Shown: positions 427 through 21,882, numbered from the stretch's first letter. The stretch is DNA of 21,882 bases from Chloroflexota bacterium (GCA_027623195.1 JAQBUT010000036.1:1-21882), one strand, 5' to 3'. Numbers and translations: made by a program. The notes: generated by a model not told the origin, from the letters alone.

Positions 427-488
427 ATGGTTACTTATTTGTCGGCGGCGCTGAACGCCATATTAATTCAACGAACGTTCAACTACTT

Positions 489-1521: not shown

Positions 1522-1678
1522 CCCCTTCTTCACTCTTAAGCACAATTAAGAACTGATAATCAACGAGGCTTTTATTCTAAAGTCTCGTTGATTTTTTTGT
1601 TTCCAGGCCTAGTTGATAATATTTAATTTCGCTCGCTGCTCCGTCTTGTTCCAGTCTTACAACACGGAGCAAAATAAA

Positions 1679-1707
1679 TTGACTGCCGCATGGCTCCATG
1701 ATATCGT
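1679..1707 (+). promoter_or_regulatory. Putative sigma70-type promoter for glnII
   Basis: TTGACT (1679-1684), a 17-nt spacer, then TATCGT (1702-1707) with an extended -10 TGn. Confidence 0.55.
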
Positions 1708-1857
1708 CTACCCGGTCTATACGGCAGCAAAGGGGCATACGGTCTTGGCAATACAAATGCTTTTCGCCATGAAGGATGGCCTTTCGGCGAACTATTATTA
1801 AAATTTCTGCCCAGTCAGTGACGATTTCTACCGACCATATTAGCCCAGGAGGACAAA

Positions 1858-2859: not shown

Positions 2860-2879
2860 AAGCCAAGTCAGAAGAGACT

Positions 2880-2937
2880 AAACGAGGAGTCTGCGCCGTC
2901 CAGGCCCAAGCGGCAATGCAGACTCCTCGTTTCTATT
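2880..2937 (+). terminator. Long stem-loop after glnII, probable terminator
   Basis: 15-bp perfect stem AAACGAGGAGTCTGC (2880-2894) / GCAGACTCCTCGTTT (2918-2932) with an inner GCCG/CGGC pair, running into TTTCTATT. Confidence 0.7.
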
Positions 2938-3042
2938 AACGAAACTGGACTGACAGTAAGCCAACGCTTTTTCCGCGTTGGCTCATGAGAAGGATATCGC
3001 TCCGCCATGCGGTGGAGGGCGGCGCGGCGCTACGAAAATTAT

Positions 3043-3071
3043 TTGACACAATTTTCACAAGCTGCTATATT
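3043..3071 (+). promoter_or_regulatory. Near-consensus sigma70 promoter for glnA
   Basis: TTGACA (3043-3048), a 17-nt spacer, then TATATT (3066-3071) preceded by TGn. Confidence 0.8.
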
Positions 3072-3196
3072 TCGTTCAATACTTTTATGTAACGTTAAGC
3101 TGGGTAAAGTGAACCCTTCCCTCCCATAGTACACGGGTAAGTGCGCTAGACCTAATCCCATATAAACCATCCAAAATTCGTTTTAGGCAGTCATCT

Positions 3197-4534: not shown

Positions 4535-4682
4535 CCGTTTCAGGCTAGAATTCCACAAAACGGACTCCGGACGGCCTGGAGGGCGGATATATGTGCATTT
4601 AGCCATCAGTCGTCATAAAATTGAACGGTTAATTGTCGAATTTTAATTAAAAAGCAAAAAGGGATAATGATTTCGTATCGGG

Positions 4683-7600: not shown

Positions 7601-9245
7601 CTCCAAACCGGGAGAAGGGGGCCAGCTTCCAGGACATAAGGTTGACGAGTACATCGGATGGGTGCGTAGTTCCACGCCCGGCGTCGAGTTGATCTCGCCG
7701 CCACCTCATCACGATATCTACTCCATTGAGGACCTGGCACAGCTGATACACGATCTTAAGAACGCCAACCCCACTGCCCGTATCCACGTTAAGCTGGTTG
7801 CGGAAGCTGGCGTAGGCACAATCGCAGCGGGCGTGTCCAAGGGCCACGCCGACGTGGTGCTCATCAGCGGCGATAGTGGAGGCACAGGGGCCTCACCGGA
7901 ATCGTCTATCAAGCACACAGGGCTTCCCTGGGAATTAGGCCTGGCCGAAACCCAGCAGGTATTGGTGCTGAACAACCTTCGCGGACGCATCGTCGTTCAG
8001 ACCGACGGCCAGCTCAAAACAGGTCGAGACGTCGCCATAGCCTGCCTGCTTGGCGCAGAGGAGTTCGGTATGGCCACGGCCCCGCTGATATCCATGGGCT
8101 GCATTATGCTTCGCAAATGCCACTTGAACACCTGTTCCGTGGGCATCGCGACCCAAGACCCAGACCTTCGAAAGATGTTCGCCGGTAAACCTGAATACGC
8201 TGTCAACTACTTCTTCTTTGTGGCCGAGGAGCTTCGCCAGATAATGGCGAAAATGGGCTTCCGGACCATAAATGAGATGGTGGGCCGTATGGACAGGCTC
8301 GACTCAGGAGACGCCTCTGAGCATTGGAAGGCAAAGGACTTGGACTTCTCGGCGCTGCTGTACAAGCCCGACGTTCCCGACAGCGTGGCGACCTATTGTA
8401 AAGAGAAGCAAGACCACTCCCTGGAGAGGGCGCTGGACAATAAGCTTATCGAGATGTGCAGGGACGCCATTGATTTCAAGAAGCCTACAACGCTAAACAT
8501 GGCAATTCGCAACGGCAATCGCACTGTGGGCACGACCCTCAGCTACGAAATTGCCAAGAAATATGGTGAGGACGGCCTACCGGACGACACCATCACTATC
8601 AACTTCAAAGGCTCGGCTGGCCAGAGCTTTGCCGCGTTTCTGGCCAAGGGCGTGACCATGAACATCAAGGGCGACACCAACGACTACTTCGGCAAGGGTC
8701 TCTCTGGCGGTAAGATTACTATCACCCCGCCAACGGAGGCGACGTACAAGCCCGAGGAGAGCATCCTGGTGGGCAACGTGGTCCTTTACGGAGCCACCAA
8801 GGGCAAGGCCTTCATTCGTGGAGTGGCCGGTGAGCGGTTCGCTGTCCGAAACAGCGGCGCACAGGCAGTGGTGGAGGGCGTCGGCGACCACGGCTGCGAG
8901 TACATGACCAGCGGCACGGTAGTGGTCTTGGGCCCCACTGGACGAAACTTCGCCGCGGGCATGAGCGGCGGGCAGGCCTTCGTTCTGGACGAAAAGGACG
9001 TTTTCGAAAGCATGTGCAATAAGGGCATGGTCGGCTTGGGCAAGGTTGAGACGGAGGAGGACGAAAGCCTCCTTCGTGGACTTATTCAGGAGCATCTTGA
9101 CCTGACAGGCAGCGTCAATGCTAAACGGATCATCGAGAACTGGAATGCCATGCGTCCAAAGTTCGTCAAGGTAATGCCCCACGATTACAAGCGCGTGCTA
9201 GAAGAACGAAGAAGATCTCAAGAGGCGGTCTCTGCGGCTGATTAA
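4683..9245 (+). CDS. gltB: Glutamate synthase large subunit
   Basis: 1520 aa with the Ntn amidotransferase EHDA^CGVG, HSRFSTNT, HNGEINT, EPWDGPA, SNTGEGGE, AQGSKPGEGGQLPG, the 3Fe-4S motif GCIMLRKCHLNTCSVGIATQ and a C-terminal GXGXG domain. Confidence 0.98.
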   Translation: MNRMVEQYVPKLTKQGLYDPRFEHDACGVGMVANVKGVKSHSVVKQGLEVLCNLEHRGARGADPETGDGAGVLIQMPHGFFATQCSDLGMELPEPGHYAVGMTFMPRKAEIQQAIEKHIRDIVEREGQAFLGWREVPVSPNEIGSLSASVMPAIRQFFVGRASDLADESAFELKLYLIRRQIEEAVAQSDSDATDEFYICSLSSNKIVYKGLIVASQLERFYHDLADEDLITSFALVHSRFSTNTLGTWKLAHPYRFVIHNGEINTLRGNINWMAARQHMFSSEALGQDIKKLLPIISTGVQSDTASFDNGLELLMATGRSLPHSLMMMMPEAWGDHLPMDQAKKDFYEYHSCLMEPWDGPALIIGTDGTQVCGVLDRNGLRPCRYLVTTDDLLVMASETGVLDVPPEKVLFKDRIRPGRMFLLDTEEGRLVDDDELKRRLSTQKPYGKWIQDNRTRLSDLPDPSTKTPANFDTLVARQKAFGYTLEDLRMIMEPMAATGGEPTGSMGNDTPLAVLSDKEPLLFNYFKQLFAQVSNPPLDAIREELVTSLSATIGAEENLFAETPEHSRQLRLDGPVITNTEMEKIRELNKRGLRTKTISTLFAPEDGEGAMKKAMDRVCKEASQALKDEYTILVLSDRGVDAEHAPIPSMLATAGVHHHLIREGTRTKVGLVVETGEAREVAHFALLVGYGAGAINPYLAFETLANMVHESSFLTTKLDYKTAESNYIKASDKGILKIISKMGISTIQGYRGAQIFEAVGLHEQFVEQYFSGTSSRISGIGINEVEEESRRRHAFAYVDLNLIGERDLKSGGAYQWRRDGEYHMWNPETIARLQHATKTNSWESYQQFAESANGFSKNLYTIRGLLEFKNADNPIPIDEVEPAKEIVKRFATGAISLGSISREAHETLAIAMNRIDARSNTGEGGEDWHRYTPDPNGDSRNSAMKQVASGRFGVTINYLANAKDLQIKMAQGSKPGEGGQLPGHKVDEYIGWVRSSTPGVELISPPPHHDIYSIEDLAQLIHDLKNANPTARIHVKLVAEAGVGTIAAGVSKGHADVVLISGDSGGTGASPESSIKHTGLPWELGLAETQQVLVLNNLRGRIVVQTDGQLKTGRDVAIACLLGAEEFGMATAPLISMGCIMLRKCHLNTCSVGIATQDPDLRKMFAGKPEYAVNYFFFVAEELRQIMAKMGFRTINEMVGRMDRLDSGDASEHWKAKDLDFSALLYKPDVPDSVATYCKEKQDHSLERALDNKLIEMCRDAIDFKKPTTLNMAIRNGNRTVGTTLSYEIAKKYGEDGLPDDTITINFKGSAGQSFAAFLAKGVTMNIKGDTNDYFGKGLSGGKITITPPTEATYKPEESILVGNVVLYGATKGKAFIRGVAGERFAVRNSGAQAVVEGVGDHGCEYMTSGTVVVLGPTGRNFAAGMSGGQAFVLDEKDVFESMCNKGMVGLGKVETEEDESLLRGLIQEHLDLTGSVNAKRIIENWNAMRPKFVKVMPHDYKRVLEERRRSQEAVSAAD

Positions 9246-9286
9246 CAGGCCCTTGTGTTGGCTCGGCTCGGATTTACGGGGCTGAT

Positions 9287-9301
9287 CCCAGGCAAAAGTA
9301 C
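9287..9301 (+). repeat. 15-bp intergenic motif CCCAGGCAAAAGTAC, copy 1 (candidate regulator site upstream of gltD)
   Basis: An identical 15-mer lies at 15124-15138; both copies are intergenic. Confidence 0.6.
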
Positions 9302-9333
9302 CCCTTGATCTAGATAATGGTAGAAGAGGCAGA

Positions 9334-10806
9334 ATGGGTAAACCGACCGGATTTAAAGAGCAGAAGAGGATGACGCAGCCGCACCAGTCGGTAGCGGAGC
9401 GAATACAGCATTACCGCGAGTTCTACGAGAACTGGACCGAGCAGCAGGCTCGTGACCAGGGCAGCCGATGCATGAACTGCGGTGTACCCTTCTGCCACAC
9501 AGGCTGCCCCTTGGGCAACCTCATACCTGACTGGACCGACATGGTCTACCGGGGTCGGTGGCAAGAGGCGCTTATAGAGCTTCACTCTACCAACAACTTC
9601 CCCGAGTTCACCGGTCGTATATGCCCAGCGCCTTGCGAAGCGGCATGTACGCTTGCAATAAACCAGGACCCTGTGAGTATCGAGCACGTCGAAAAGGCCA
9701 TAGCCGACCGCGGCTGGCAGGAGGGCTGGATTACTCCGCAGGCTCCGTCCCTTAACACTGGCAAGACAGTTGCCGTGGTGGGATCAGGTCCCGCCGGACT
9801 GGCCGCCGCACAGCAACTCAGCCGGTCCGGCCATACCGTCACAGTATTCGAGCGAGACGATTACATCGGTGGTCTGCTGCGCCTCGGCATACCGGACTTC
9901 AAGCTTGGCAAAGATGTCGTGCAGCGCCGCGTCGACCAGATGAAGGCTGAGGGTGTCACCTTCCAGACAGGCGTTCATGTGGGAACAGACGATTTCCCTG
10001 CGGACAGGCTACTCGGCGAATTTGACGCAGTGGTGCTGAGCGGCGGCTCCACCGTGCCCCGAGACCTACCAGTGCCAGGCCGCGAACTCCAAGGTGTTCA
10101 CTTCGCCATGGAGTTCCTAACACAGCAAAACAAGATCAACGCTGGAGAGACCATTCCCTCAGCGAAGCGCATATCCGCCGAGGGCAAACGTGTGGTCATC
10201 CTGGGCGGCGGCGACACCGGTTCCGACTGCCTGGGAACGTCGCACCGGCAGGGCGCGGAGGTTGTCTACCAGTATGAGTTGCTATCTGAGCCACCTACGG
10301 AGCGTTCAGCCAATAATCCGTGGCCCTTCTGGCCTATGGTTCTACGAACGTCCTCATCGCAAGAAGAGGGCGTAATCCCCGGCTTCGACGTCATGACCAC
10401 GCACCTCTCTGGTGAGGCTGGGCATGTCAAAAAGCTTCATGCGGTCAAGGTTAACTGGGGTGCGCCGGATGAGTCAGGCCGCCCACAGATGCAGAAGATC
10501 GAGGGCAGCGAGTTCGAGATAGACGCTGACCTGGTCTTGTTGGCCATGGGCTTTCTGCACCCCGAGCCAAAGGGGCTGTTGGCAGACTTGGGCGTAGAGT
10601 TAGACGCTCGTGGCAACCTTGCCGACGACGAGAACAAGATGACCAACGTCCCTGGTGTGTTCGCTGCCGGAGACATGGCGCGAGGCCAGTCACTGGTGGT
10701 ATGGGCCATCGCCGAGGGCCGGGAGGCCGCACGCGGGGTCGACCAGTACCTCATGGGCCACACCAGCCTGCCACACGTTCTCGCCGGAGCCCTGGCTAGA
10801 AGCTAA
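9334..10806 (+). CDS. gltD: Glutamate synthase small subunit (NAD(P)H-dependent)
   Basis: 490 aa with MGKPTGF, RCMNCGVPFCHTGCPLGN, NNFPEFTGRICPAPCE, VVGSGPAG, GGGDTGSDC and GQSLVVWAIAEGR. Confidence 0.97.
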   Translation: MGKPTGFKEQKRMTQPHQSVAERIQHYREFYENWTEQQARDQGSRCMNCGVPFCHTGCPLGNLIPDWTDMVYRGRWQEALIELHSTNNFPEFTGRICPAPCEAACTLAINQDPVSIEHVEKAIADRGWQEGWITPQAPSLNTGKTVAVVGSGPAGLAAAQQLSRSGHTVTVFERDDYIGGLLRLGIPDFKLGKDVVQRRVDQMKAEGVTFQTGVHVGTDDFPADRLLGEFDAVVLSGGSTVPRDLPVPGRELQGVHFAMEFLTQQNKINAGETIPSAKRISAEGKRVVILGGGDTGSDCLGTSHRQGAEVVYQYELLSEPPTERSANNPWPFWPMVLRTSSSQEEGVIPGFDVMTTHLSGEAGHVKKLHAVKVNWGAPDESGRPQMQKIEGSEFEIDADLVLLAMGFLHPEPKGLLADLGVELDARGNLADDENKMTNVPGVFAAGDMARGQSLVVWAIAEGREAARGVDQYLMGHTSLPHVLAGALARS

Positions 10807-10817
10807 GGACAAGCTGG

Positions 10818-12026
10818 TTATATAACAGCCTGATCCCGAAGCTCTGCCAGGTCCGCTTCCGACAGCCCTAGCAACTCGCCGTAAACCTCGGCGTTATGCT
10901 CTCCCAACAGTGGAGAATGCTTCATTTCTACTGGTGAGTCCTCTAGCTGCACCGGGAAGCCGGGCATCTTGAAGACGCCGCGTCTCGGATGGTCCATAGT
11001 GGTGATCATGCCCCGCTCAGCTAGATGCGGATCGTTGTGAATATCACCGGCGTTCAAGACAGCGCCGCACGGTATGCCACCTTCTCCCAGGATGTCCTGG
11101 ACCTCGTATTTGGTCTTCGTGGAGGTCCATGCCTCCACCAGCGCGTCCACCTCTTCCTTGTGCTGTCCTCGCCAAACAGGATTGGACCAGTCCGGGTCTT
11201 CCATGAGGTCTTCCCGGCCAATCATAAGGCACAGGGCGTCCCACATATGGCCTCGGGTGGGCTGGCAGTAGATGAACACGTAGTCGTCGGGGCCGCCGGG
11301 CTTGCACCTGTAGATATCAGCAGGGGCGTTGCCCGCCACGTGGCTGCCGGTCCTGCCCGGCTCTTCTCCACCCGAATCGTAATACTGACGCATCTTGATT
11401 CGGCTGAAGTTAACGACGGCGTCCTGCATGGAAAGCTCCAGCACCTGCCCCTTGCCAGTCTGCTCCCGCTGCCACAGCGCCGCCATAATGCCGAAGGCCA
11501 TGTGGATTCCGGAGCCGGTATCGCCGATAGTGACGCCCGGCTTCATTGGAGGGCCGCCGGGGGCGCCAGTGAACGCCATTGAACCACCGGTGGCCTGGGC
11601 GATCATGTCAAAGCTCTTGTAGTTTGAGTAAGGCCCGTACGTCCCGAACCCTTTGATACGGGCGAAAATAATCCTTGGGTTAACGCCCTTGAGCAGTTCG
11701 TAGGTGATGCCGATTCTCTCCAGCGTGCCGGGGGCCATGTTCTCGATCACAACGTCAGCCTGCTTCACCAGGTCCAGGAGCATGGCTTTGCCGCGCTCGG
11801 TCTTCAGGTCCAGGGTCACGCTGCGTTTGTTGGCGTTGAGTAGGATGAAGTAGTAGCTGTCCACGTCTGGCAGGTCGGAGCGATTGCGCCGGCCGGGGTC
11901 GCCCACGCCAGGCTGCTCTACTTTAATCACATCTGCGCCCAGCCAGGCCATGGACTCTGTGCAGGCTGGCCCCGCCTCGAACTGGGTCAGGTCGATTACT
12001 CGAAGGTTTTCCAGTGCTTTTCCCAT
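10818..12026 (-). CDS. Family III CoA-transferase (CaiB/BaiF, formyl-CoA-transferase-like)
   Basis: DLTQFEAGP, LGADVIKVE, NANKRSVTLDLK, IKGFG, catalytic Asp context IGDTGSG, SMQDAV and PLLGEHN. RBS AGGAG upstream. Confidence 0.93.
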   Translation of the reverse strand: MGKALENLRVIDLTQFEAGPACTESMAWLGADVIKVEQPGVGDPGRRNRSDLPDVDSYYFILLNANKRSVTLDLKTERGKAMLLDLVKQADVVIENMAPGTLERIGITYELLKGVNPRIIFARIKGFGTYGPYSNYKSFDMIAQATGGSMAFTGAPGGPPMKPGVTIGDTGSGIHMAFGIMAALWQREQTGKGQVLELSMQDAVVNFSRIKMRQYYDSGGEEPGRTGSHVAGNAPADIYRCKPGGPDDYVFIYCQPTRGHMWDALCLMIGREDLMEDPDWSNPVWRGQHKEEVDALVEAWTSTKTKYEVQDILGEGGIPCGAVLNAGDIHNDPHLAERGMITTMDHPRRGVFKMPGFPVQLEDSPVEMKHSPLLGEHNAEVYGELLGLSEADLAELRDQAVI

Positions 12027-12396
12027 TATTTTGCTCCTGCCGTGCGAAGGTCACTTCCGCCCGACAATTATTGAATTTTGATCAGAATTCACCCCGCAAC
12101 GCAAGCAGTCGCGGCGACTAGATGCCGATGATAGCATCGTTTGGGCGGAAGGGACAGCGGGACGCGTTGCGTCACTTGGGCATCCCCCGATCGGCCCTTC
12201 GGCCAGCTTTACGAGTGTAACATCCTGTTATATCTGCAAATCAAATGTATTTGTTAATGAACGCTTAATCTTCGACATATTCTGTTAAGAATTGCCTCCT
12301 AGTAGGAATTGAAGACCACCACATGCCTTAAGGGTCCTATCAGAAGCTGATAGCGAAGTCGGAGGTCTGAAATCTCATCCAAGAAAGGGAGAGGAA

Positions 12397-12852
12397 ATGA
12401 AAGGTCTAAAACGTAGTGTAGCGGTATTCCTAGCGGCAGCGACAGCACTTTCGGCTGTTGCGGTGGCGTCGGCGAACGGCGCCGGCGGAGTGACGGGCCC
12501 GGCGTTCTATGTCGACGGTGAGATGTACCGCACGGTTGGCACTCCAACCGACCTGTCTAACACAGGCGCGCCGGACCATAGTTTCGACGTTATTTATGGC
12601 ATTGGCCACAACCAACCCAACGTAGCTGAGGCCGCCCCCGGACAGGTGGGATTCAACGGTGGGCGATGGATGGTGCGTCCGGTCACGTTCAACGACTATG
12701 CCGCAGCTGTAGTAGCCCACGACGCCAACGACAGTGGGGACCTTGACAGCAACGAGGAAGTGGAGGCTGCTCTGGCCGATACGGGCGCATCGGGAGCCAC
12801 GCTTGGCGGCGTTGTGAAGACCTTTGAATGCCCGGTGATTCACATACCTTAG
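12397..12852 (+). CDS. Secreted hypothetical protein (151 aa) with an EF-hand-like Ca-binding loop
   Basis: RBS GGGAGAGG. Signal peptide MKGLKRSVAVFLAAATALSAVAVASA. The loop DANDSGDLDSNE fits DxNxSGxLDxxE. Also contains APG..GFNGGRW and a C-terminal FECPV. Confidence 0.85.
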   Translation: MKGLKRSVAVFLAAATALSAVAVASANGAGGVTGPAFYVDGEMYRTVGTPTDLSNTGAPDHSFDVIYGIGHNQPNVAEAAPGQVGFNGGRWMVRPVTFNDYAAAVVAHDANDSGDLDSNEEVEAALADTGASGATLGGVVKTFECPVIHIP

Positions 12853-12893
12853 GCTGCAACATGGCACCTGGGCGATAGGCCGACAACTGGTTG

Positions 12894-12946
12894 AAAGGAT
12901 GCCCTACTTTCGGATCTCCGAGATGGGGCATCCTTTTTCTTTTCTT
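12894..12946 (+). terminator. Intrinsic terminator, possibly bidirectional
   Basis: AAAGGATGCCCTA (12894-12906) / TGGGGCATCCTTT (12924-12936) with an inner TCGGA/TCCGA pair, followed by TTCTTTTCTT. It lies between convergent genes. Confidence 0.85.
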
Positions 12947-13020
12947 GGCCTGAAGGTAATCAAACTGTTTCTCGCAAAGGATGCTAGAGGTTATGGCTCC
13001 GAGGTTGGCATAAATGGGTT

Positions 13021-13759
13021 CTAGATCGCATGAGATAGGGAAAGCCAGTCCAGTAATTCCTGTGGGGAACGAAGGCGAGGAAACGGCGGGGCTCCTTCAG
13101 GGTATTGGCGCCACATGTCACCTGCGAATTTTCCTGGGCGAATTCCTGCGGGCCAGCGATCCAAGAACCATGTCGCCCATAACGCCGCGATGCCTAATTG
13201 AGAGGCTCCAGATAACTCGTCTCGCCCACCATCTCCAACGAAGACGGCCTCTTCAGCGCTCACTCCAAGCGTTTGAAGACAGTGACGGTATATGCGAGAA
13301 TCTGGTTTGAGCACGCCTATCTTGTAAGATGAGACCACAACATCAAAGAAAGAAGGGCGCAATCCGACATTCCGACCACGGCGCCATGTCCATATCGCCT
13401 GCATTCGTTACCAGCCCCAACCGAAGTCCTCGCGTTTTAAGGCCTTCCACTAATTCAATGATTGAATCTTCCATATTGGCAAATACAGAAGCCAGGCGTG
13501 CGAACTGTTCGCTAGCGAGTTCGGCAACAACTGAATTGTCCGGGACGTGCCCCACATTTCTGCAAACCGCTATTAGAAGCTCCTCATAGTTATCAAGATT
13601 CCCTTTCTGCCATTCATCATCAAATTGATCCCATTGGACTTGAAATTCATCCTCTCGCATACCAAGTCGTGCGGCAGTCGATTGCTGTGGAGGACTCCAA
13701 TTTGGATCAAAATGCGTTATGAGAGTCTCAAAAAGATCGAAAATGATGGCTCGAAGCAC
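13021..13759 (-). pseudogene. HAD-superfamily (subfamily IA) hydrolase, frameshifted
   Basis: GTG start at 13759 with RBS GGAGGA. Motif I AIIFDLFET and motif II GLVTN are in one frame; motif III KPDSRIY and motif IV FVGDGGRDE are in another. The switch is at minus-strand CCC TTC TTT CTT TGA. Removing 4 nt restores ...APFFDVVVSS. Confidence 0.88.
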
Positions 13760-13828
13760 GAAATCCTCCAGAAATAGTTTGTGTTGAGGAGCATTCCCGA
13801 CTTTACACATCGTGAAACAAATTTAGAA

Positions 13829-15025
13829 TTACCCGATCACGCCCTGCTCTCTCATATCCGACACGTATTCGGGCGTGTGGCCAAGAATCGTTGTGAGAAT
13901 ATCCTCGTTGTGCTCGCCGTAACGCGGGGCCTTCGTAACCGTATCGTCCTGGCCGGTGATCTTAATGGGGCAGCCTATCATGCGGTAGTCACCGCGGACC
14001 GGATCTTCCACATTCACGACCATCTCCCGTTCCGCCAGATGAGGGTCCGCAAGCAGGTCACGGGTGTTCATAGTGGCACCGGCCAGCACTCCAGCCCCAG
14101 CCAACAAGGTCATGGCCTCTTGCTTGGTGTGTTTGGTAGTCCACTCGGAAACGATCTCCTCAATCTCGTCGGCGTGGTCCGCCATGGTCTCGAAATCCTG
14201 GAAGCGCGGATCGCCGATTAAGTCCTCCCGCCCGATGACCACGAACAGCAGGTCCCACATCTCACCCCTGGGAAACAGCAAAATGTAGTCGTCCGGGCCA
14301 CCCGGTGCACAAGGGTAAACCATCGGCGTCCCTCTGCCGGCGCGGTGCCCACGGCGTTGCTCTGGCCTATCCAGACCCAATGTGGACGTGATTTGCATTC
14401 GCATGAGGTTCACCACGGCGTCCTGCATGGACACCTCAACCATCTCGCCCTTGCCGGTGGCGTCGCGTTTTCGCAGCGCAGCGAGGATGCCTATGGCCGC
14501 ATGCAGACCGCTGCCGGAGTCCCCTACCCCTGGTGAAATGTACGCCGGAGGCCTATCCGGGTATCCGGTGGTGGCCATGGCGCCGCCTACCGCCTGGGCC
14601 ACCATCTCCCAGCCCTTATATTGTTTGTACGGACCGTAGGTTCCGAAGCCCTTGATGGTGGCGTAGACCAGCCCAGGATTAATCTCCTGTAGCTTGTCCC
14701 AGCCGTATCCGAGCCGTTCCATCATACCCAGAGAGAAATTTTCCAGCAGGACATCAGCCCACTTTATTAAGTCTGTGAATATTTCCTTGCCTTTGTCCGT
14801 TTTCAGGTTAAGGCTGAGGCTTCTTTTGTTGTTATTGAATATGAGGAAGTAGAAGCTGTCGGAGTCTTCAGCATGGCGCAGGTCATGCCGCGTGGAGTCG
14901 CCTCCCCATATGTCCTCGATTTTGATTACATCTGCACCTAAAAACGCCAGCAGTTGGGTACACGACGGTCCCGCCTGCACATGAGTCAGGTCCAGTATTT
15001 TGACGCCCTCCAGTGCCTTTTCCAT
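13829..15025 (-). CDS. Family III CoA-transferase (formyl-CoA-transferase-like), paralog of 10818-12026
   Basis: LDLTHVQAGPSCTQ (Frc-like HVQAGP), NNNKRSLSLNLK, IKGFGTYGPY, VGDSGSG, SMQDAV and PRYGEHN. Confidence 0.93.
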   Translation of the reverse strand: MEKALEGVKILDLTHVQAGPSCTQLLAFLGADVIKIEDIWGGDSTRHDLRHAEDSDSFYFLIFNNNKRSLSLNLKTDKGKEIFTDLIKWADVLLENFSLGMMERLGYGWDKLQEINPGLVYATIKGFGTYGPYKQYKGWEMVAQAVGGAMATTGYPDRPPAYISPGVGDSGSGLHAAIGILAALRKRDATGKGEMVEVSMQDAVVNLMRMQITSTLGLDRPEQRRGHRAGRGTPMVYPCAPGGPDDYILLFPRGEMWDLLFVVIGREDLIGDPRFQDFETMADHADEIEEIVSEWTTKHTKQEAMTLLAGAGVLAGATMNTRDLLADPHLAEREMVVNVEDPVRGDYRMIGCPIKITGQDDTVTKAPRYGEHNEDILTTILGHTPEYVSDMREQGVIG

Positions 15026-15123
15026 ACTTGTGTTCCCACCCTCTTAATAAGAATCCAGCGCCATTATAAACCTGTCGGAAAGCGGCTGGGAGCGGTGAGA
15101 GATTCGGATCAACCGCAAAATCC

Positions 15124-15138
15124 CCCAGGCAAAAGTAC
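15124..15138 (+). repeat. 15-bp intergenic motif CCCAGGCAAAAGTAC, copy 2
   Basis: Identical to 9287-9301. It lies upstream of a minus-strand TATAAT (15063-15068) that precedes the CoA-transferase gene. Confidence 0.6.
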
Positions 15139-15702
15139 TGCAATGGGACGCCTCGGAGGCATTTCTTTGCGCAGATGCTGGACTATTTCACCCATTCCCA
15201 GCTCATACGCACGTCGCAGCAAAAGCGTTTTCTGCGTGCAACTCCGAGTTTAGACATCTGCAAGCGATTGCGAATACCCTCAGCAGCGCATCCACAGGGA
15301 AGCCTCAGCGAATTGCATGGGGTTACTCATGGCACGATGAGCCTTAAACGCTCGATGTAGGCCGTTAGTGCTCCAATTATCGGTCAGTCTTGCCAATTCT
15401 CCTTTACGGCTTGTCCATGGTATGGAAGGCACTATGACATGCGTGGCATTCATGGCCATCACAGTTCCGGTTGGATATTGGCACCTAGCGAAAAGTGTGT
15501 ACGGCCACCCCCCGTCCCATTTGACAGTACAAAACTCTATGTGTCGGCATACACGGGGGTAACACGCAGGGTGGTATCTGCTCAGAACACCTATACGCTG
15601 CTGATGAGTCCATTCAAGACTTATGAGGTAGATTGGCACACAATTCCGAAAGGGCATGCACACCAACCTCACACCGGGCCATCGAAGTGGAGCAGGACAG
15701 TA

Positions 15703-16926
15703 GTGGAAATTTACAAAGTGTTCACGTGCGAATCCGCACACCGCCTTCCCAACGTGGCGGAGGATAACAAGTGCGGTAGGCTGCACGGGCACTCTTACCG
15801 TTTCGAGGTTTGGGTAGACGGCCCCGTGGATCAACATACGGGTTGGGTTATGGACCTACATGACATCAGCAGGGCTTTCCAGCCGATTCATGATCAGATG
15901 GATCACCATTACCTAAATGACATAGAAGGACTATCGAATCCGACAAGCGAAAACATAGCCCGCTGGATATGGGAACGAATTAACCCATCGCTTTCGTATC
16001 TCAGCCGGGTTGTCGTATATGAGACCTGCACGTCAGGTTGCATTTATCGAGGAGAGGGGGCTGAATTCATGGTAGACGTTAGCCATGAACGCGAGGCTCT
16101 GAGTCAACTGGCTCTTAAAAGTCAGCAGATTATAGAGGACGTACAAAGCCGAGCGGACAACAGGATGATTCCCATAGATCGGGTGGGTGTCAACGACATC
16201 CAGTACCCGATACGTGTTTTGGACAGAGATGGTAAACCTCAGCATACGGTTGCCAACCTCTCCATGTCTGTGGACTTGCCACACGACGTGAAGGGCACGC
16301 ATATGAGCCGCTTCATAGAAATCTTGAATGCTTACGATGATGAACTGGGCATCGATACGCTGCCTAACATCCTCAGCACCATTCGGGAGAGACTCGGAGC
16401 GGCCAGCGCACGCATTGAGGCGGACTTCCCGTTCTTCCTAAATCGGGCGGCCCCAGTTAGCGGCGCGAAGTCCTTAATGAATTACGAGTGCTCCCTGCTG
16501 GGGGAATCTGGCACGAAGAAGGGCGATTATGTCCTAACCGTAAAGGTTCCTGTTACCTCTCTTTGCCCCTGCAGCAAGGAGATCAGCGACTACGGTGCAC
16601 ACAACCAGCGCGGCTTCCTGACAATCAAAGCCCGCAGCAAGCTAACCATCGATGGGAGCCTGCCTCGTATATCGATGGAGGACATCATAGACGTGGCGGA
16701 GCAGTCAGCGTCGTCTCCTGTCTACCCGTTGCTCAAGAGGCCCGATGAACGCCATGTGACGATGCAGGCTTATGAGAACCCCGTTTTCGTAGAAGACATG
16801 GTCCGAGAAGTCGCGACCAAGCTAAAAATAGACGATCGACTGTCCTGGTTTAGCGTTCACGCCGAAAATCAGGAGAGCATCCACAACCACAACGCTTTCG
16901 CCCAAATCGAATGGGCCAGGGCGTAA
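15703..16926 (+). CDS. queD-folE2: In-frame fusion of QueD (6-carboxytetrahydropterin synthase, PTPS-I) and FolE2 (GTP cyclohydrolase IB), 407 aa
   Basis: Start revised to GTG at 15703 (MEIYKVFTCESAHRLPNV). QueD motifs: CGRLHGHSY, MDHHYLNDIEGLSNPTSENIA, ETCTSGCIY. FolE2 motifs: DVQS..D.R.IPIDRVGV, KGTHMSRF, PVTSLCPCSKEISDYGAHNQR, LKRPDE, AYENPVFVEDMVR, ESIHNHNAFA. No stop codon separates the domains. Confidence 0.92.
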   Translation: MEIYKVFTCESAHRLPNVAEDNKCGRLHGHSYRFEVWVDGPVDQHTGWVMDLHDISRAFQPIHDQMDHHYLNDIEGLSNPTSENIARWIWERINPSLSYLSRVVVYETCTSGCIYRGEGAEFMVDVSHEREALSQLALKSQQIIEDVQSRADNRMIPIDRVGVNDIQYPIRVLDRDGKPQHTVANLSMSVDLPHDVKGTHMSRFIEILNAYDDELGIDTLPNILSTIRERLGAASARIEADFPFFLNRAAPVSGAKSLMNYECSLLGESGTKKGDYVLTVKVPVTSLCPCSKEISDYGAHNQRGFLTIKARSKLTIDGSLPRISMEDIIDVAEQSASSPVYPLLKRPDERHVTMQAYENPVFVEDMVREVATKLKIDDRLSWFSVHAENQESIHNHNAFAQIEWARA

Positions 16927-16935
16927 GGGCCGCTG

Positions 16936-18528
16936 GTGATAGGAGATAAGGCGTTAGATTCCAGTAGCTTCATGTCGCCCAGTCGACATGAAGTGATGGG
17001 GTTCGCCCCTGGTGCCGTCGATCCCAGAGGCATGAGCCTCGACGAGCTCACGGAACACCTGGACGCAGGCTTGCACAGGCAACGTGAGCAGAACTCTCGA
17101 TGGGACTTTGATGGCATAGTCTCTTTCCTGGATGGCGTTGCAAAGGCCAATCCGCATCAGCACATCACAGGCTCCGTGGGAAGTGCTGAGTTACTTAACA
17201 GGGCCCTTGAGATTTATCAGGAAGACCCCTCCGCTCGGGAAGCTTTCCTGGACTACGCGATATCTACTGGTTTGATGAGACCGGAGATCGCACGCCATTT
17301 CTTCCGGCTATCAAACAATGCAATGCTTCAGTGGCTACAGAGCCACATACCACTCAGCTCTACACCTACCGACTTTAGCCAGGCGGATGACCGCCTGAGC
17401 CTGGTCCGTCTGGCGTTTCAGAGCGGGCACCCTGGCACAGGCGAGTTACTGGAGGAGGCATACAGGGGTGTTGCCCTGGAAAACCATTTGCACGGCGTGG
17501 CCGAGGTGTGGTTCCGCACATCGCTAGGGGATCACAACGCAGAGGCCTTCGACCGGATTACCCAGTCGGCCATTCGAGGGGCGTCCAGGGCAGAGTCAGA
17601 GTCGAACTCGACTTTGAATGTCAGATTTGTCGTCGGCATGCGTAAGGCGTGGCACGACACCGAATCCGCAGCACAAAGAGGCTCTCCCTTCGACACTAAG
17701 GCGCTGGGTCTGGTAACACGGCTGGGAAAACTACGAGAGGGCGACGCCAAATCTGCCGGAATGATACTTGGCGTGGACAGCGTGGGCACGGATTCGGGCT
17801 GGAGGCCGGAATGGCAAGCGCCAGCACGAACTTTGGCCGCTTCACAAGATATGCATGTCGCGATGCATTTTGGGGAGTCCTGGCAATCCGGAGAACTGCT
17901 GGTCACGTTGCAACGACTAGAAGCCCTCGCACGAAACGGCGACATATGCCAGCTAGACAACTCCAATGCCTTATTTGCTACGCGTGACACCAAGAACCCT
18001 GTGCAGGTCTATTCAGATGATGAATGGAATGAAATTGGCAGGATTCAGGGAAGCGCTTTTGGACTGCTCGTAGAACGCCGTATCGGGTTGGGAATCAATC
18101 CCACAAGCAACGACTGGCTAACGCGGTCCCTCAGACAGCAGGAGGGCTGGAGGCTTCGGCAACACGATGAGAGTTTAACGCCGGGAGGGCCCTCCGTTAT
18201 TGACATGATGTCCTCGGAGAGCGGCGTCAATCCTCTCGTTATGGTAGTGGGCAATGACAACAGCCGTATTTACCCCTCCAGGGTGCGAAATTCGTATTTG
18301 ACTGTGAGCGAAGAACTGGCGAATTTATGGGAGACTCCAGGCTCCTCGGAGCCCAGCGTCTTCGGGAAATACCCAACTAGATTTATCGCAAAGCTAATTT
18401 TGAATGGCTTCACGTTAACGCGAGCCATGAGCAGTGCCAGTCAAGGTGCCGACCAATTTCGACTGGCACCGTCTTCGAACGATCAGAACCTGTCAAAGAC
18501 ACTCAGAGGTCCCAGCGGACGGGTTTAG
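16936..18528 (+). CDS. Divergent adenosine/AMP-deaminase-fold metallo-amidohydrolase
   Basis: ADA-family motifs appear in the expected order: KANPHQHITGS (cf. KxELHxHLDGS), ILGVDSVG (cf. VVGIDLAG), AMHFGES (cf. HAGE), QLDN (cf. RIGH), GINPTSN (cf. ExCPTSN), VGNDNS (cf. INTDDP) and VSEEL. The exact start is uncertain. Confidence 0.75.
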   Translation: MIGDKALDSSSFMSPSRHEVMGFAPGAVDPRGMSLDELTEHLDAGLHRQREQNSRWDFDGIVSFLDGVAKANPHQHITGSVGSAELLNRALEIYQEDPSAREAFLDYAISTGLMRPEIARHFFRLSNNAMLQWLQSHIPLSSTPTDFSQADDRLSLVRLAFQSGHPGTGELLEEAYRGVALENHLHGVAEVWFRTSLGDHNAEAFDRITQSAIRGASRAESESNSTLNVRFVVGMRKAWHDTESAAQRGSPFDTKALGLVTRLGKLREGDAKSAGMILGVDSVGTDSGWRPEWQAPARTLAASQDMHVAMHFGESWQSGELLVTLQRLEALARNGDICQLDNSNALFATRDTKNPVQVYSDDEWNEIGRIQGSAFGLLVERRIGLGINPTSNDWLTRSLRQQEGWRLRQHDESLTPGGPSVIDMMSSESGVNPLVMVVGNDNSRIYPSRVRNSYLTVSEELANLWETPGSSEPSVFGKYPTRFIAKLILNGFTLTRAMSSASQGADQFRLAPSSNDQNLSKTLRGPSGRV

Positions 18529-18557
18529 GGGTATCCGGGGTAAAGGAATAAATCCAC

Positions 18558-19502
18558 TTGGTTTGGATAGTGTTGTCTCTGATCAGCGCGGCGGCCTACG
18601 GGACAGTAGCCGTGATGGACAAACGATTACTGGATAAGCATATGCCAAGCCTATCTAGCTATTTCCTTTGGGTTGGTCTGGCGACGCTCATATATGGATT
18701 CGTTTATCTAGGCTTCAGCGATTTCCCTGTGGGCGTATCTGCAACGAGGATAGCCGTGGGAGCGCTTTCTGGGCTCTGTTGGGGGGGAGCCATCGCAATG
18801 ATGTTCTGGGGCTTCAAGCTTCAAGAGGTTTCCAGGGCCAGCGCGTTGCTATTTACGTTCCCAGTGTTTGTAGCGCTATTCGCTTCGCTGTTTCTCGGCG
18901 AATCATTGGGATACGGAAGATGGCTCGCAATTGGGGTAGTTGTCTTCGGCGCCCTGCTTATATCAGTGGCCGAGCCCACGAATAGTATATTCGAAAAGGT
19001 GAATCGTTATTGGAAACTAGGCGAACCAAAGTCAAAAAGCCAGATCCGGTTCACGCTGGCATTCCCAGTCCTAATCGGCTCTAGCCTGCTAACCGCGGGT
19101 GGGCATCTGACTGGCAAATACGCCCTTCAGGAGCTCTCGATACCAATGGTGACGTCTATGGGCTTTTTCGGCACCGCATTTGTGCTGGCGTTGTTCTGGA
19201 GACCAAGAGCTTTTAGAGAGATTAAACAGGTAGTCCGAAGTAAGGAGGCGTTGCTGCTGCTACTGCTCAGCGAAGGTATCTTGGTTCCAATCGCGGTCAC
19301 GTCGATGATCGCGGCAACCAAGCTGGGCCCCATATCTCTGGTGGCCACAATAGCGGGAACCCGTCCCATATTTGTCTTTTTCTATAGCACGGTATTGAGT
19401 CTGCCAAGTATCCGATTACTCAATGAAACGCTCGACCGAAGAACCCTGGTAGTCAAAGTAGCTTCGGTGGGCATGATAATTATAGGAATATTATCGCTAT
19501 AA
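18558..19502 (+). CDS. EamA/DMT-superfamily transporter (314 aa, two repeats, about 10 TM)
   Basis: Hydrophobic throughout. Repeat signatures EVSRASALLFTFPVFVALFASLFLGESL and GPISLVATIAGTRPIFV...LLNETL. TTG start with AAGGA upstream. Confidence 0.9.
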   Translation: MVWIVLSLISAAAYGTVAVMDKRLLDKHMPSLSSYFLWVGLATLIYGFVYLGFSDFPVGVSATRIAVGALSGLCWGGAIAMMFWGFKLQEVSRASALLFTFPVFVALFASLFLGESLGYGRWLAIGVVVFGALLISVAEPTNSIFEKVNRYWKLGEPKSKSQIRFTLAFPVLIGSSLLTAGGHLTGKYALQELSIPMVTSMGFFGTAFVLALFWRPRAFREIKQVVRSKEALLLLLLSEGILVPIAVTSMIAATKLGPISLVATIAGTRPIFVFFYSTVLSLPSIRLLNETLDRRTLVVKVASVGMIIIGILSL

Positions 19503-19576
19503 ATGTTTATCTATGCAGATATGACATCTCGTGAAAATTATATCGAGGCAAAAACACAAAATACAGGAGGGACACG

Positions 19577-20158
19577 ATGTTACAGAAAAGCTTGAAACCC
19601 ACGATAGGATTATTGGCAGTCTTCGGACTAATGCTGCTGTTGGTAGGTTGCAGCCAAAAGGCAAACCTCGCCTACGCAGAGATAGCTCCGGCGGGTATTA
19701 ACATTGGAGACGGAATTCCTTTGCCTACTGGAAATGCCATTCTCAACATTAGTGGAGCTATTAGCCAGACCAACGATAACGACAAACTAGTTCTCGACAT
19801 AGCTACGTTGGAAAAGCTGGGCCTGGTTGAGTACACCATCGCCGACCCATGGCAGAACCATGAGGAAATAACCTATGTCGGTGTTCTGATATCGGACCTT
19901 CTGAAGTACGCCGGCGCATCCGACACGGCCACCAACGTGCACATGGTGGCGCTGGATGAGTATGCGGTTGACGTTTCCATGGAGGACGTGAAGAAGTGGC
20001 CTGTGCTACTTGCCACACGCACTAATGGTAGTTACATGGACATTGAGAGTTCCGGACCTACCAGGGTCGTATTCCCATTCCATTCAAACCCGGAAATCGA
20101 CGAGGACACCTACAAGGTGTTGATGATCTGGAACTTGAGAGACATCGTAATCCAATGA
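19577..20158 (+). CDS. PruR-like small pterin-binding lipoprotein (truncated sulfite-oxidase/molybdopterin-binding fold)
   Basis: RBS AGGAGG and lipobox LVG-C25. Family pattern ILNISGAI..N, LEKLG, DPW, YVGV.ISDLL, ALDEY, LLA...NG..M....GP.RVVFP, IWNL. The lipobox Cys is the only Cys, so the Mo-ligating Cys is absent. Confidence 0.85.
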   Translation: MLQKSLKPTIGLLAVFGLMLLLVGCSQKANLAYAEIAPAGINIGDGIPLPTGNAILNISGAISQTNDNDKLVLDIATLEKLGLVEYTIADPWQNHEEITYVGVLISDLLKYAGASDTATNVHMVALDEYAVDVSMEDVKKWPVLLATRTNGSYMDIESSGPTRVVFPFHSNPEIDEDTYKVLMIWNLRDIVIQ

Positions 20159-21792
20159 CCGTAGAAAACTCCTCGGGAGCGGCCCCGTTCAGGCCGCTAC
20201 AAGAGATAGGCCCGCCCATGTACGGTCAGCAGACCGAGACTAAGAGTGGCTCATGCTGGGGCACATTCTCATCTGTTCAGGTGGGGCTGCTGCTGCTTGT
20301 CGCGATACTCGTTATAGCCGTGCAAGCTCTTATCCTGCGGACCTATTTCAACAGCTCGGCAACTGCTGAGCAGTTCGAGGAGGCCAGCTTTACAACAACA
20401 GGGCTGGCGAACATACAACGGGAAGCGCTGCTACTCCAGCTAGAAACGCATCTGGCCATAGAGAACCCAGACGCGAACCTGGAGAGTTTAGAGCTGAGGC
20501 GCGCCCTCCTGGGCAGTCAGCTGAGGCGACAACAAGGTCAATCAGCAAATAACCAGCAGATTTATGCCGGCCTCATGGAAATTAAGGACACCCTAAATTT
20601 CTATGACGAATCCTTCGACGAAGTTTTTTACAATCCCGACGGCGTTGACGAGCGCGTTAGCGAGGAAATAGCACTGACTCTGCGCAGCTTGGAGCTTCAG
20701 ATCAAGACCTTCTATGACAAGGAAGAGCAGAGCTTTTTTGCGGCATTTAAAGAGACCCTGGGTACTCAGAGAAACACTCAGGTTCTATTGCTAGCAGTCG
20801 ATGCCCTGGTTGTTATAACGGGTATCGTCCTTATCATGTCACTGGTGCGCTCAGTCAGAGCCCTGAATGAGGAAAACACCCAGCGTCAGATGGCTCAGGT
20901 CGCACTCAGGGAGGTCAACGAGACGCTGGAGCGACGCGTCGACGAACGCACTGAGGAGCTTAGCACCGCCAACTCCCGCTTGCAGGGAGAGGTTTTCGAA
21001 CGGGCACAGGCCCAGCGAGAACTAAGGGCGTTCACGCATAAGCTCGAAGAGAGCAACAGAGAGCTTCAGAGCTTTGCATCAGTGGCGGCCCACGACCTTC
21101 AGGAACCGCTGCGAAAGGTGCAGGCCTTCGGCGACAGACTGAAATCCAAATATTCAGAGGCACTTGGGGATCAGGGCCGAGATTACCTGGAGCGAATGCA
21201 GGATGCCTCAGGTCGTATGGCAAGCCTCATCAACGACCTGCTCAGCTACTCAAGAGTGACAACGAAGGCCCAGCCATTTGTCCCTGTGAATCTGAACGAC
21301 ATTACCACAGAGGTTGTCAGCGACCTGGAAATTCGAATAGAGGACCTGAAAGGCAGCGTTGAGGTGGGCGACCTACCCACCATTTATGCAGACGTTCTCC
21401 AAATGAGGCAACTTATGCAAAACCTTATAGGCAACGCCCTAAAGTATCACAAGGAAGAAGAAGCGCCGGTTGTTAAGGTGTCGGCTAAGCTAGTCAAAGC
21501 TACGGCAGAGAGACCGGGCAACCAGGAATCTGAAGAATTGTGCGAAATCACAATATCGGACAACGGAATAGGATTCGACGAGAAATATGCGGATCGCATT
21601 TTTGGAATATTCCAACGGCTGCACACCCGAACCGAATATGACGGCACCGGGGTAGGCCTCGCGATCTGCCGAAAAATTGCTGAGCGGCATAACGGAACCA
21701 TCAACGTCCATAGCCAGCCGGATAAGGGCTCCCAGTTCATGGTTACGCTTCCCGTTTCGCAAGTAAATGAAGATACGGAGGAAGAGGAATGA
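20155..21792 (+). CDS. Membrane sensor histidine kinase (2 TM, helical extracellular domain, coiled coil, HisKA, HATPase_c)
   Basis: TM1 VGLLLLVAILVIAVQALIL and TM2 VLLLAVDALVVITGIVLIMSLV. H-box FASVAAHDLQEPLRKV (Cph1/bacteriophytochrome-type kinase module), N-box QNLIGNALKY, DNGIGF, IFQRLH and GTGVGLAIC. ATGA overlap with the upstream lipoprotein gene. Confidence 0.96.
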   Translation: MTVENSSGAAPFRPLQEIGPPMYGQQTETKSGSCWGTFSSVQVGLLLLVAILVIAVQALILRTYFNSSATAEQFEEASFTTTGLANIQREALLLQLETHLAIENPDANLESLELRRALLGSQLRRQQGQSANNQQIYAGLMEIKDTLNFYDESFDEVFYNPDGVDERVSEEIALTLRSLELQIKTFYDKEEQSFFAAFKETLGTQRNTQVLLLAVDALVVITGIVLIMSLVRSVRALNEENTQRQMAQVALREVNETLERRVDERTEELSTANSRLQGEVFERAQAQRELRAFTHKLEESNRELQSFASVAAHDLQEPLRKVQAFGDRLKSKYSEALGDQGRDYLERMQDASGRMASLINDLLSYSRVTTKAQPFVPVNLNDITTEVVSDLEIRIEDLKGSVEVGDLPTIYADVLQMRQLMQNLIGNALKYHKEEEAPVVKVSAKLVKATAERPGNQESEELCEITISDNGIGFDEKYADRIFGIFQRLHTRTEYDGTGVGLAICRKIAERHNGTINVHSQPDKGSQFMVTLPVSQVNEDTEEEE

Positions 21793-21813
21793 GCACTAAC
21801 AATAAGACCATAA
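21789..21813 (+). pseudogene. 5' fragment (MSTNNKTI) of a gene coupled to the kinase, probably a response regulator, interrupted by an IS
   Basis: ATG at 21789 overlaps the kinase TGA (ATGA), with purine-rich GGAGGAAGAGG upstream. The sequence switches to an IS-like terminus at 21814. The identity is inferred from context only. Confidence 0.5.
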
Positions 21814-21882
21814 TGAGGTGGTATCGGTTTTTTAGACAGGTAGCTAAGAGAGAGTCCCGCTCCTAAAATGACAGAAATAAAG
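21814..21882 (+). mobile_element. Left end (IRL) of a probable IS3-family insertion sequence, truncated by the window edge
   Basis: Begins TGAGGTGGTATCGGTTTTTTAGACAG, an imperfect inverted repeat of 46-70. Shares the 12-bp subterminal TAAGAGAGAGTC with 19-30 (inverted). TAAAAT at 21864-21869 could be the transposase -10. Confidence 0.7.

Follow-up and report, generated by a model that had tools for sequence, protein, structure and literature searches.

The closest described relatives of the system reported here are the PruR pairs of Proteobacteria. In Agrobacterium tumefaciens, the pteridine reductase PruA supplies a monapterin derivative, which PruR reads together with the membrane sensor DcpA, and the output is turnover of cyclic di-GMP (PMC11194511). 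The main text of the same paper, published in 2024, also describes PruR-DTB, in which PruR is coupled to a histidine-kinase output and which accounts for 23% of over 5,500 pairs from Proteobacteria (PMC11194511). The sensor of PruR-DTB carries a DcpA-type periplasmic domain on a TorS- or BaeS-like histidine kinase (PMC11194511; PMC13259868), the periplasmic loop of DcpA itself measuring 138-150 amino acids (aa) (PMC11194511). As presented in their main texts, the published surveys of PruR-DcpA and PruR-DTB cover Proteobacteria only (PMC11194511; PMC13259868), and the review among them describes no pterin efflux system as known and the in vivo ligand of PruR as unidentified (PMC13259868). Here we report a gene cluster at positions 15703-21813 (+ strand) of a stretch of 21,882 nucleotides (nt) from Chloroflexota bacterium (GCA_027623195.1, JAQBUT010000036.1:1-21882), in which a PruR-type lipoprotein gene and a sensor kinase gene adjoin genes for a QueD-type enzyme, the GTP cyclohydrolase FolE2, a hydrolase of the adenosine deaminase (ADA) fold and an EamA transporter. 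The whole stretch, called the window below, is an entire contig (C48) of a 3.0-Mb assembly in 65 contigs that is 87% complete. We favor, with a probability of roughly 0.55, the interpretation that the cell makes a pterin of its own through a dedicated branch and reads it with the PruR-kinase pair.

Linkage of the cluster across genomes

The cluster is conserved in a few uncultured Chloroflexota, the records of which are labelled Dehalococcoidia or SAR202. In the window it comprises five genes of the same orientation, plus the opening codons of a sixth, with the following features (positions counted from the first letter of the window):

15703-16068, + strand: QueD-type COG0720 domain (6-carboxy-tetrahydropterin synthase type), matching PF01242 and TIGR03367
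16051-16055, + strand: G5 homopolymer, the run length of which decides between a fusion and two genes
16069-16926, + strand: GTP cyclohydrolase IB (FolE2) domain or gene, matching PF02649 and NF010200
16936-18528, + strand: 530-aa hydrolase of the ADA fold, by AlphaFold2 model, Foldseek and VIA-align
18558-19502, + strand: EamA/DMT-family membrane transporter of 314 aa, matching PF00892 in two stretches
19503-19576, no strand: 74-nt spacer between the EamA and PruR genes, where neither Rfam nor the promoter and terminator scan gave a hit
19577-20158, + strand: putative PruR-type pterin-binding lipoprotein with a Cys-less SUOX fold, by sequence homology to PDB entries
20155-21792, + strand: sensor histidine kinase with a first transmembrane segment (TM1), loop, second transmembrane segment (TM2), coiled coil, HisKA (PF00512) and HATPase_c (PF02518)
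21789-21813, + strand: beginning of a stand-alone receiver (REC) gene that is truncated at the end of the contig, aligning with the start of L007:3622-4074
21814-21882, no strand: high-copy sequence at the contig end, outside the cluster

Searches with patterns of the 530-aa hydrolase family yielded 11 related loci, from five species-representative genomes and six metagenome contigs. Two of these loci, L004 and L007, lie on separate contigs of a single metagenome-assembled genome, and L003, L016 and L017 apparently represent one population. Counted only over loci that reach far enough, the gene order is kept as follows:

QueD and FolE2 genes directly upstream of the ADA-fold gene: 9 of 9 loci
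EamA gene next after the ADA-fold gene: 8 of 9 loci
PruR gene next after the EamA gene: 7 of 7 loci
Sensor kinase gene next after the PruR gene: 6 of 6 loci

Outside the window's own lineage, i.e. in three of the four lineage groups, the proteins are 45-55% identical to those of the window, and the flanking genes vary between lineages. Because the order is kept while the flanks differ, the block is conserved as a unit. An earlier reading of this DNA, made from the sequence alone (the sequence-only reading), had suggested a gene-neighborhood search as a check on the link between synthesis and sensing genes, and such linkage is present in every far-reaching related locus but one, L015. Receiver-only genes follow the kinase gene in all four loci that extend there (L003, L005, L006 and L007), with a hybrid kinase gene or kinase fragment further on in L007 and L003.

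The layout described in the sequence-only reading is borne out by the coordinates of the open reading frames (ORFs), which lie at 15703-16926, 16936-18528, 18558-19502, 19577-20158 and 20155-21792: all are co-oriented, with intergenic gaps of 9, 29 and 74 nt and then ATGA overlaps at 20155-20158 and 21789-21792. The same reading saw no obvious terminator, and a consensus scan agrees, as terminator-like sites are no more frequent than in shuffled sequence (5 vs. 6.1 +/- 2.8) and the sole one on the + strand (19168-19188) lies within the EamA gene. Neither the promoter nor the terminator consensus scan performed better than shuffles. The 677 nt 5' of queD (window positions 15026-15702) hold neither an Rfam match nor a motif common to the lineages: Rfam at E<=1 gave zero matches over 14900-21882, this region included (no riboswitch), and no 9-mer in the 320 nt upstream of queD was common to at least three of the four lineage groups.

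Components of the cluster

By sequence homology, the lipoprotein is a true PruR homologue. All four of its PDB matches at E<=10 are titled 'pterin binding protein' (7rkb, 1.1e-25; 7kos, 1.1e-22; 7kom, 7.2e-14; 7kp2, 4.4e-9) and correspond to the PruR structures published in 2024 by Greenwich et al. (PMC11194511), and PF00174 (Oxidored_molyb) gives a partial match (5.1e-9). W91 aligns with W70 of the A. tumefaciens protein, with the Trp of the 7kos 'TPW' and with the Trp that replaces the cysteine ligand of the molybdenum cofactor, and this position holds Tyr in two of seven cluster homologues. The residues assigned to the ligand pocket of A. tumefaciens PruR, L101, N102, Y104 and W160, correspond to L126, D127, Y129 and W185 (their roles, and that of the Trp in place of the cofactor cysteine, are as given in the main text of PMC11194511). 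Asp instead of Asn at position 127 is found in 7/7 cluster homologues, and Y129 is Phe in 1/7. The lipobox LVGC has an invariant C25 (7/7) and the mature protein is otherwise Cys-free, in keeping with the Cys-less SUOX-fold lipoprotein of the sequence-only reading. Its signal peptide and lipobox predict a protein that is extracytoplasmic and lipid-anchored rather than free in the periplasm. Such an anchor would make sense if these Chloroflexota lack an outer membrane.

The next gene encodes a histidine kinase with two transmembrane segments, as had been called from the sequence: PF00512 and PF02518 are both matched, and TM1 and TM2 flank a sensor loop of about 145 aa (residues 63-207), a length within the 138-150 aa given for the DcpA loop (PMC11194511). 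The loop is modelled as four long helices forming a four-helix bundle (pLDDT, the predicted local distance difference test, 91.4), and the nearest Foldseek matches of this model are periplasmic four-helix-bundle sensor domains at E 0.03-0.1, with none at E<=0.001. The sensor part is 39-79% identical across loci, and the cytoplasmic kinase cores are of differing types. Invariant residues of the loop include Y64, F79, T82, L84, A85, N86, Q88, R89, E90, R115, R116, A117, Y150 and D151. When 1.84 billion representatives were searched exhaustively with a profile of the sensor part, 208 proteins scored E<=1e-3. Pfam was run on 75 of the representatives of at least 300 aa among 150 listed of these 208; the scan assigned a histidine kinase to 34, GGDEF to 24 (20 with EAL), SpoIIE to one, and only GAF/PAS or nothing to the remaining 16. 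Since it is found on kinases as well as on GGDEF/EAL proteins, the loop is a modular sensor used like the DcpA domain. The source names of the family members were uninformative except for Anaerolineales and Ardenticatenaceae.

The gene that begins at 21789 had been described as a cut ORF. It is indeed incomplete, and the alignment with L007 specifies it further as the start of a receiver-domain gene, L007:3622-4074 encoding a 150-aa Response_reg protein (PF00072, 1.6e-18). Contigs of runs X3 and X5 extend beyond 21813 with matching sequence. Elsewhere in the genome, a second member of the sensor-loop family (E 1.5e-47) is encoded at G000:C4:271-2661 (- strand; locus L033). It is a 796-aa GAF-HisKA-HATPase-REC hybrid kinase with no adjoining PruR gene, its neighbor being a methyladenine glycosylase gene. 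A tblastn search found one PruR only in the genome, and one PruR may therefore serve two sensors.

The 530-aa protein matches neither a Pfam nor an NCBIfam family, and a search of PDB sequences returned chance matches only (haemoglobin, E 0.6). Even at a Pfam E<=10, A_deaminase was matched by just 2 of 32 family members (best E 0.034). Its relatives number 41 among 5.8 billion proteins, none of them functionally named, and the two records of the family that bear a name are of Chloroflexi and Dehalococcoidia. An AlphaFold2 model built from 32 sequences (mean pLDDT 81.6) has the ADA fold as its best Foldseek match, at E 1e-8 (adenosine, adenine and N6-methyl-AMP deaminases). VIA-align superposed the model on N6-methyl-AMP deaminase with a Z score of 28.0 (root-mean-square deviation of 3.3 Å over 314 residues) and on adenosine deaminase with Z 26-28, and a language-model atlas look-up scored 0.92 to A_deaminase clusters. 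Therefore, the ADA-fold hydrolase proposed in the sequence-only reading stands despite the lack of a family match. The motifs NPHQH (H74, H76), HFGE (H311, E314), LDN (D341, N342) and GNDN (D441) are conserved, and the residues given in brackets are invariant, H74, H76, H311, E314 and D441 in all 32 sequences; H74 and H76 are placed after the first strand. Mapped by motif and predicted strand ends rather than by residue-level superposition, the protein retains these features of the deaminase subgroup of amidohydrolases: HxH, the beta-5 His with the Glu of its HxxE, and the Asp at beta-8. It has in addition a helical segment of about 100 aa compared to adenosine deaminases. Its gene context points to a pteridine or GTP-derived substrate.

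Two metagenome proteins related to the 530-aa family differ in composition. P0040 (456 aa) is a chimeric ORF that joins ADA-fold residues 12-151 (60% identity) to PruR residues 94-139 (76%), with an unrelated HisKA-HATPase as its C-terminal part; the ORF must stem either from a deletion within the cluster or from an error of assembly. P0041 (399 aa, on a contig of 2,100 bases) is 41% identical to the N-terminal half of the ADA-fold protein and carries a 225-aa N-terminal extension with an XRE-type helix-turn-helix (PF01381), so the family may occur in other contexts.

The first two activities of the cluster both exceed NCBIfam equivalog cut-offs, and the QueD and FolE2 assignments of the sequence-only reading thus hold. 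The QueD domain matches PF01242 at 3.4e-36 and TIGR03367 with 102.3 bits (cut-off 89.25). Its GTG start has a GGAG about 10 nt upstream; the frame is open as far as an ATG at 15439, and the Pfam profile and the relatives favor GTG 15703. The motif KCGRLHGH fits CxxxHGH, the signature of PTPS-I/QueD, ExxHGH being that of PTPS-III, according to the main text of PMC5041015. FolE2 matches PF02649 at 4.7e-93 and NF010200 with 281.2 bits (cut-off 215). Two other candidates were rejected: a PTPS-III or folate role for the QueD-type enzyme (Gly at the ExxHGH position; FolB on contig C56) and an identity of FolE2 as MptA or GCH-IV (both scores under the cut-offs). The presence of FolB also makes the QueD-type enzyme dispensable for folate synthesis. 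The cluster's FolE2 is the only FolE2 of the genome. A type IA FolE is encoded on contig C49, and because a type IA FolE occurs outside the cluster in all six genomes checked, FolE2 is an extra GTP cyclohydrolase. A second, different PTPS-domain protein, seemingly cut by the end of contig C65, lies at G000:C65:174123-175190. Its homologue in the close relative G002 (L028:3-2871) is 462 aa long and bears the PTPS domain at its C-terminus; a PTPS_related membrane protein (PF10131) is encoded next after it.

The QueD-FolE2 fusion described in the sequence-only reading is seen only in the window and is not a conserved feature. At the site of the window's G5, the run is 6 G long in L004, the closest relative, and likewise in contigs from three runs (X3-X5) that belong to a second study. 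With G6, QueD terminates at a TGA and FolE2 begins at ATG 16069, and separate QueD and FolE2 ORFs are found in 9/9 related loci that cover both. G5 is matched by the contig of one run only (X2; 274 bases, depth 4.8), which belongs to the same study as the likely source sample.

The transporter was correctly called from the sequence (PF00892, 4.6e-17), and an EamA orthologue of 50-87% identity occupies the matching position in eight loci. Downstream of it, a spacer of 78-213 nt, as judged from the longest ORFs, is found at the matching position in L003, L005, L006, L007, L016 and L019.

The end of the window is of a different nature. Positions 21814-21882 have a depth of 100-3,400 (four runs, in unrelated short contigs) vs. 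5-20 elsewhere in the window, loose ends occur at 21813/21814, and no match to L007 was found for this segment. The high-copy depth and the missing match suggest an assembly artefact. On its other side, the cluster is preceded by genes of other kinds. A nitrogen-assimilation block at 1858-10806 comprises a short glutamine-synthetase-like ORF (333 aa), GlnA (445 aa), and the large (1,520 aa) and small (490 aa) subunits of glutamate synthase. It is followed at 10818-15025 by two paralogous family III CoA-transferases (- strand), which are formyl-CoA-transferase-like and score under the equivalog cut-offs; between them lie two ORFs, one of 151 aa at 12397-12852 (+ strand), which has a hydrophobic N-terminus and matches no family, and a short HAD-like one at 13343-13810 (- strand).

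A candidate pterin circuit and its alternatives

From the identities of the components and their conserved linkage, both of which are direct observations, we infer each step of the following mechanism. FolE2 would convert GTP to dihydroneopterin triphosphate, from which the QueD-type enzyme would make a tetrahydropterin, most likely 6-carboxy-5,6,7,8-tetrahydropterin (CPH4) by family assignment. The ADA-fold hydrolase would then modify the tetrahydropterin, the simplest guess being a hydrolytic deamination to a lumazine-type compound, and the EamA transporter would carry the product across the membrane. On the outer face, the membrane-anchored PruR lipoprotein would bind the product and alter the activity of the adjacent four-helix-bundle sensor kinase, which may in turn feed receiver-only proteins and a hybrid kinase as the next members of a relay. 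In this way the cell would read the level or the redox state of its own pterin. Self-production of the ligand is consistent with the product of the QueD/PTPS reaction being a fully reduced pterin, and PruR of A. tumefaciens prefers tetrahydropterins according to the main text of PMC11194511. A more specific form of the proposal, close to the autoinducer-like circuit of the sequence-only reading, is that this is a complete pterin circuit outside Proteobacteria, in which the ADA-fold enzyme makes a new pteridine or lumazine signal from 6-carboxy-tetrahydropterin, EamA is the first pterin efflux transporter, and PruR and the kinase without WX7E form the receptor. We put this version forward tentatively, as a possibility that the details may well not bear out; if true, the ligand, synthase and transporter would be named for the first time for a PruR system.

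Several observations weigh against a self-made pterin that is read by PruR and the kinase. The sensor loop contains no Trp, and the WX7E motif that defines DcpA-type domains is missing. Complex prediction of PruR residues 40-193 with loop residues 63-207 gave scores of 0.43, 0.45 and 0.40, the best of three controls reaching 0.00, and was graded as weak support for an interaction of the two. The runs agreed in at least 97% of contacts, and the pLDDT of the partner was at least 87. The mark used for such complexes is reached by 116 of 157 solved complexes and by 2 of 215 mismatched pairs; at scores of 0.60 or below, it is reached by 18 of the 157 and by both of the mismatches that pass. The ADA-fold protein belongs to a rare family: among 401 genomes sampled from the class, its gene was found in one, the window's own. 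Where ADA has the beta-6 His and a second Asp (His238 and Asp296 in ADA numbering), the same motif mapping as above places D341/N342 and N442. Since these two residues are not kept, deamination is a guess. In two of ten QueD sequences compared (those of the window and nine loci), L006:6555-6917 and L019:6600-6962, the motif is DxxxHGH instead of CxxxHGH; L006 lies in genome G004, the record of which is labelled SAR202, and L019 is a metagenome contig. With Asp in place of the catalytic Cys, the QueD reaction and hence the first product may differ between lineages.

The gene content of the host genome adds to these points. The cluster QueD is the sole QueD-type gene found in this genome, which also has a queF-queC-queE operon without queD (contig C24:112348-114662; locus L021), its queF and queC being 143 nt apart at the site where G004 carries queD. 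Together these two findings indicate that the cluster QueD probably does double duty here, also serving queuosine synthesis and taking part of the flux. From there it would be a short step to regard QueD and FolE2 as housekeeping enzymes of queuosine synthesis or as zinc-sparing isozymes, and their position beside the sensor pair as meaningless, a view that the queF-queC-queE genes, a tgt gene on contig C11 and the lack of another QueD-type gene would suit. FolE2 beside a zinc-dependent FolE is moreover the classical zinc-sparing pattern. We nevertheless consider this very unlikely. QueC (E<=1e-20) is absent from two cluster-bearing genomes (G001 and G003), and a third, G004, holds its own queF-queD-queC-queE operon, so the cluster is not maintained for queuosine. 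Coincidental placement also fits poorly with an order that is kept at 45-55% identity between different flanks, and zinc sparing fits poorly with the conserved third gene, the ADA fold of which holds a metal site in solved relatives (as judged from entry titles). The sequence-only reading had argued against a queuosine or folate operon, which stands for the cluster as such, given the two genomes without QueC and the presence of FolB, but not entirely for this genome, where QueD probably feeds queuosine. It had also named, as a finding that would speak against it, that these might be the only folE and queD of the genome; folE is not unique, with FolE elsewhere in 6/6 genomes, and queD is the sole one found here.

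A further set of objections concerns the joint between synthesis and sensing. The spacer at 19503-19576 may hold an internal promoter, and because 74-213 nt always separate the EamA and PruR genes, two transcription units are possible. In L015, the QueD, FolE2 and ADA-fold genes are followed by a convergent ABC transporter, with no EamA-PruR-kinase genes. Conversely, another Chloroflexota genome, G422, has a PruR gene directly upstream of a sensor of the loop family, with the cassette absent within 7-8 kb on either side. These two cases make the synthesis and sensing blocks separable modules, which are usually joined where the ADA-fold gene occurs. The G422 pair also suits a reversal of the transport step, such that EamA would be an importer and the PruR-kinase pair would sense exogenous pterins of the community, the synthesis genes being merely co-located or a regulated target. 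EamA/DMT members operate in either direction, and the riboflavin importer RibN is a DMT member. Import would also agree with a suggestion made in a review, namely that exogenous pterins are what certain PruR systems are adapted to detect (PMC13259868). Against this, an extra GTP cyclohydrolase and a QueD-type enzyme imply de novo synthesis, not salvage, and they accompany the transporter gene in 8/9 loci; we judge import to be distinctly unlikely.

Somewhat less remote, albeit still rather unlikely in our view, is that the pterin has a primary extracellular job, as an antioxidant, redox mediator or metal ligand, and that PruR and the kinase act as a feedback monitor by which its production is adjusted. 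The cluster would then be a homeostatic loop rather than a source of a signal. The evidence from linkage is identical for this and for a self-made pterin signal, and the cluster contains no DNA-binding output or quorum-type target, which agrees with homeostasis. The conserved block encodes, however, no extracytoplasmic enzyme with a use for such a pterin, and nothing at the sequence level separates a homeostatic loop from a self-made pterin that is read as a signal, the interpretation that we continue to prefer.

Comparison with known systems

The cluster offers concrete candidates for the PruR ligand, for its synthesis (three enzyme activities) and for its transport. Two open questions of pterin signalling become directly testable here, because a PruR-sensor pair adjoins a synthesis pathway and a transporter. 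The cluster also extends PruR-type sensing to Chloroflexota, with records from aquatic and estuarine metagenomes, and places a protein family known only as 'hypothetical protein' in a functional context for the first time. Searches of the literature turned up neither a PruR pair in Chloroflexota nor a lipid-anchored PruR nor a partner domain without WX7E. Nor did we find a PruR pair joined to genes for a GTP cyclohydrolase, a COG0720 protein, an ADA-fold protein and a transporter; this applies to the main texts covered by the searches. The claim that the arrangement had not been described is thus supported within that scope. The sequence-only reading had further stressed an output by a kinase rather than a c-di-GMP enzyme; such an output is not new for PruR, since PruR-DTB is already published (PMC11194511).

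Compared to known enzymes, the ADA-fold protein resembles adenosine, adenine and N6-methyl-AMP deaminases (cog1816, PF00962) in its TIM-barrel amidohydrolase fold (Z 26-28), and differs from them in having no significant Pfam match, in the D341/N342 and N442 substitutions and in its extra helices of about 100 aa. FolE2 and the QueD-type enzyme, which pass their equivalog cut-offs, correspond to the early steps of queuosine and 7-deazapurine synthesis, where FolE or FolE2 and QueD make CPH4. Unlike a queuosine operon, the block lacks queE, queC, queF and tgt, and the next gene encodes the ADA-fold protein rather than the radical-SAM enzyme QueE.

As a circuit, the cluster would be analogous to PruA-PruR-DcpA of A. 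tumefaciens, as that system is described in the main text of PMC11194511: in both, a reduced pterin of the cell's own making would leave the cell and be captured by PruR, with a membrane sensor to pass the signal on. The Chloroflexota cluster has no reductase; a cassette of QueD-type enzyme, FolE2 and ADA-fold hydrolase takes its place, and the predicted output is a phosphorelay. The closest match in architecture is PruR-DTB. Both have a gene for a secreted, Cys-less SUOX-fold protein directly upstream of, and overlapping, the gene for a sensor with two transmembrane segments (here by the ATGA at 20155-20158). They likewise have in common an outer loop of about 145 aa, a histidine-kinase output, and a modular domain that is also found on GGDEF-EAL proteins. 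In contrast to PruR-DTB, the present pair belongs to Chloroflexota, its PruR is predicted to be lipid-anchored and has D127 for the binding-site Asn, and its loop lacks Trp and WX7E. With 208 representatives, the loop family shows no sign of reaching the more than 5,500 published pairs. Finally, and again unlike PruR-DTB, the pair sits in a block with genes for synthesis and transport.

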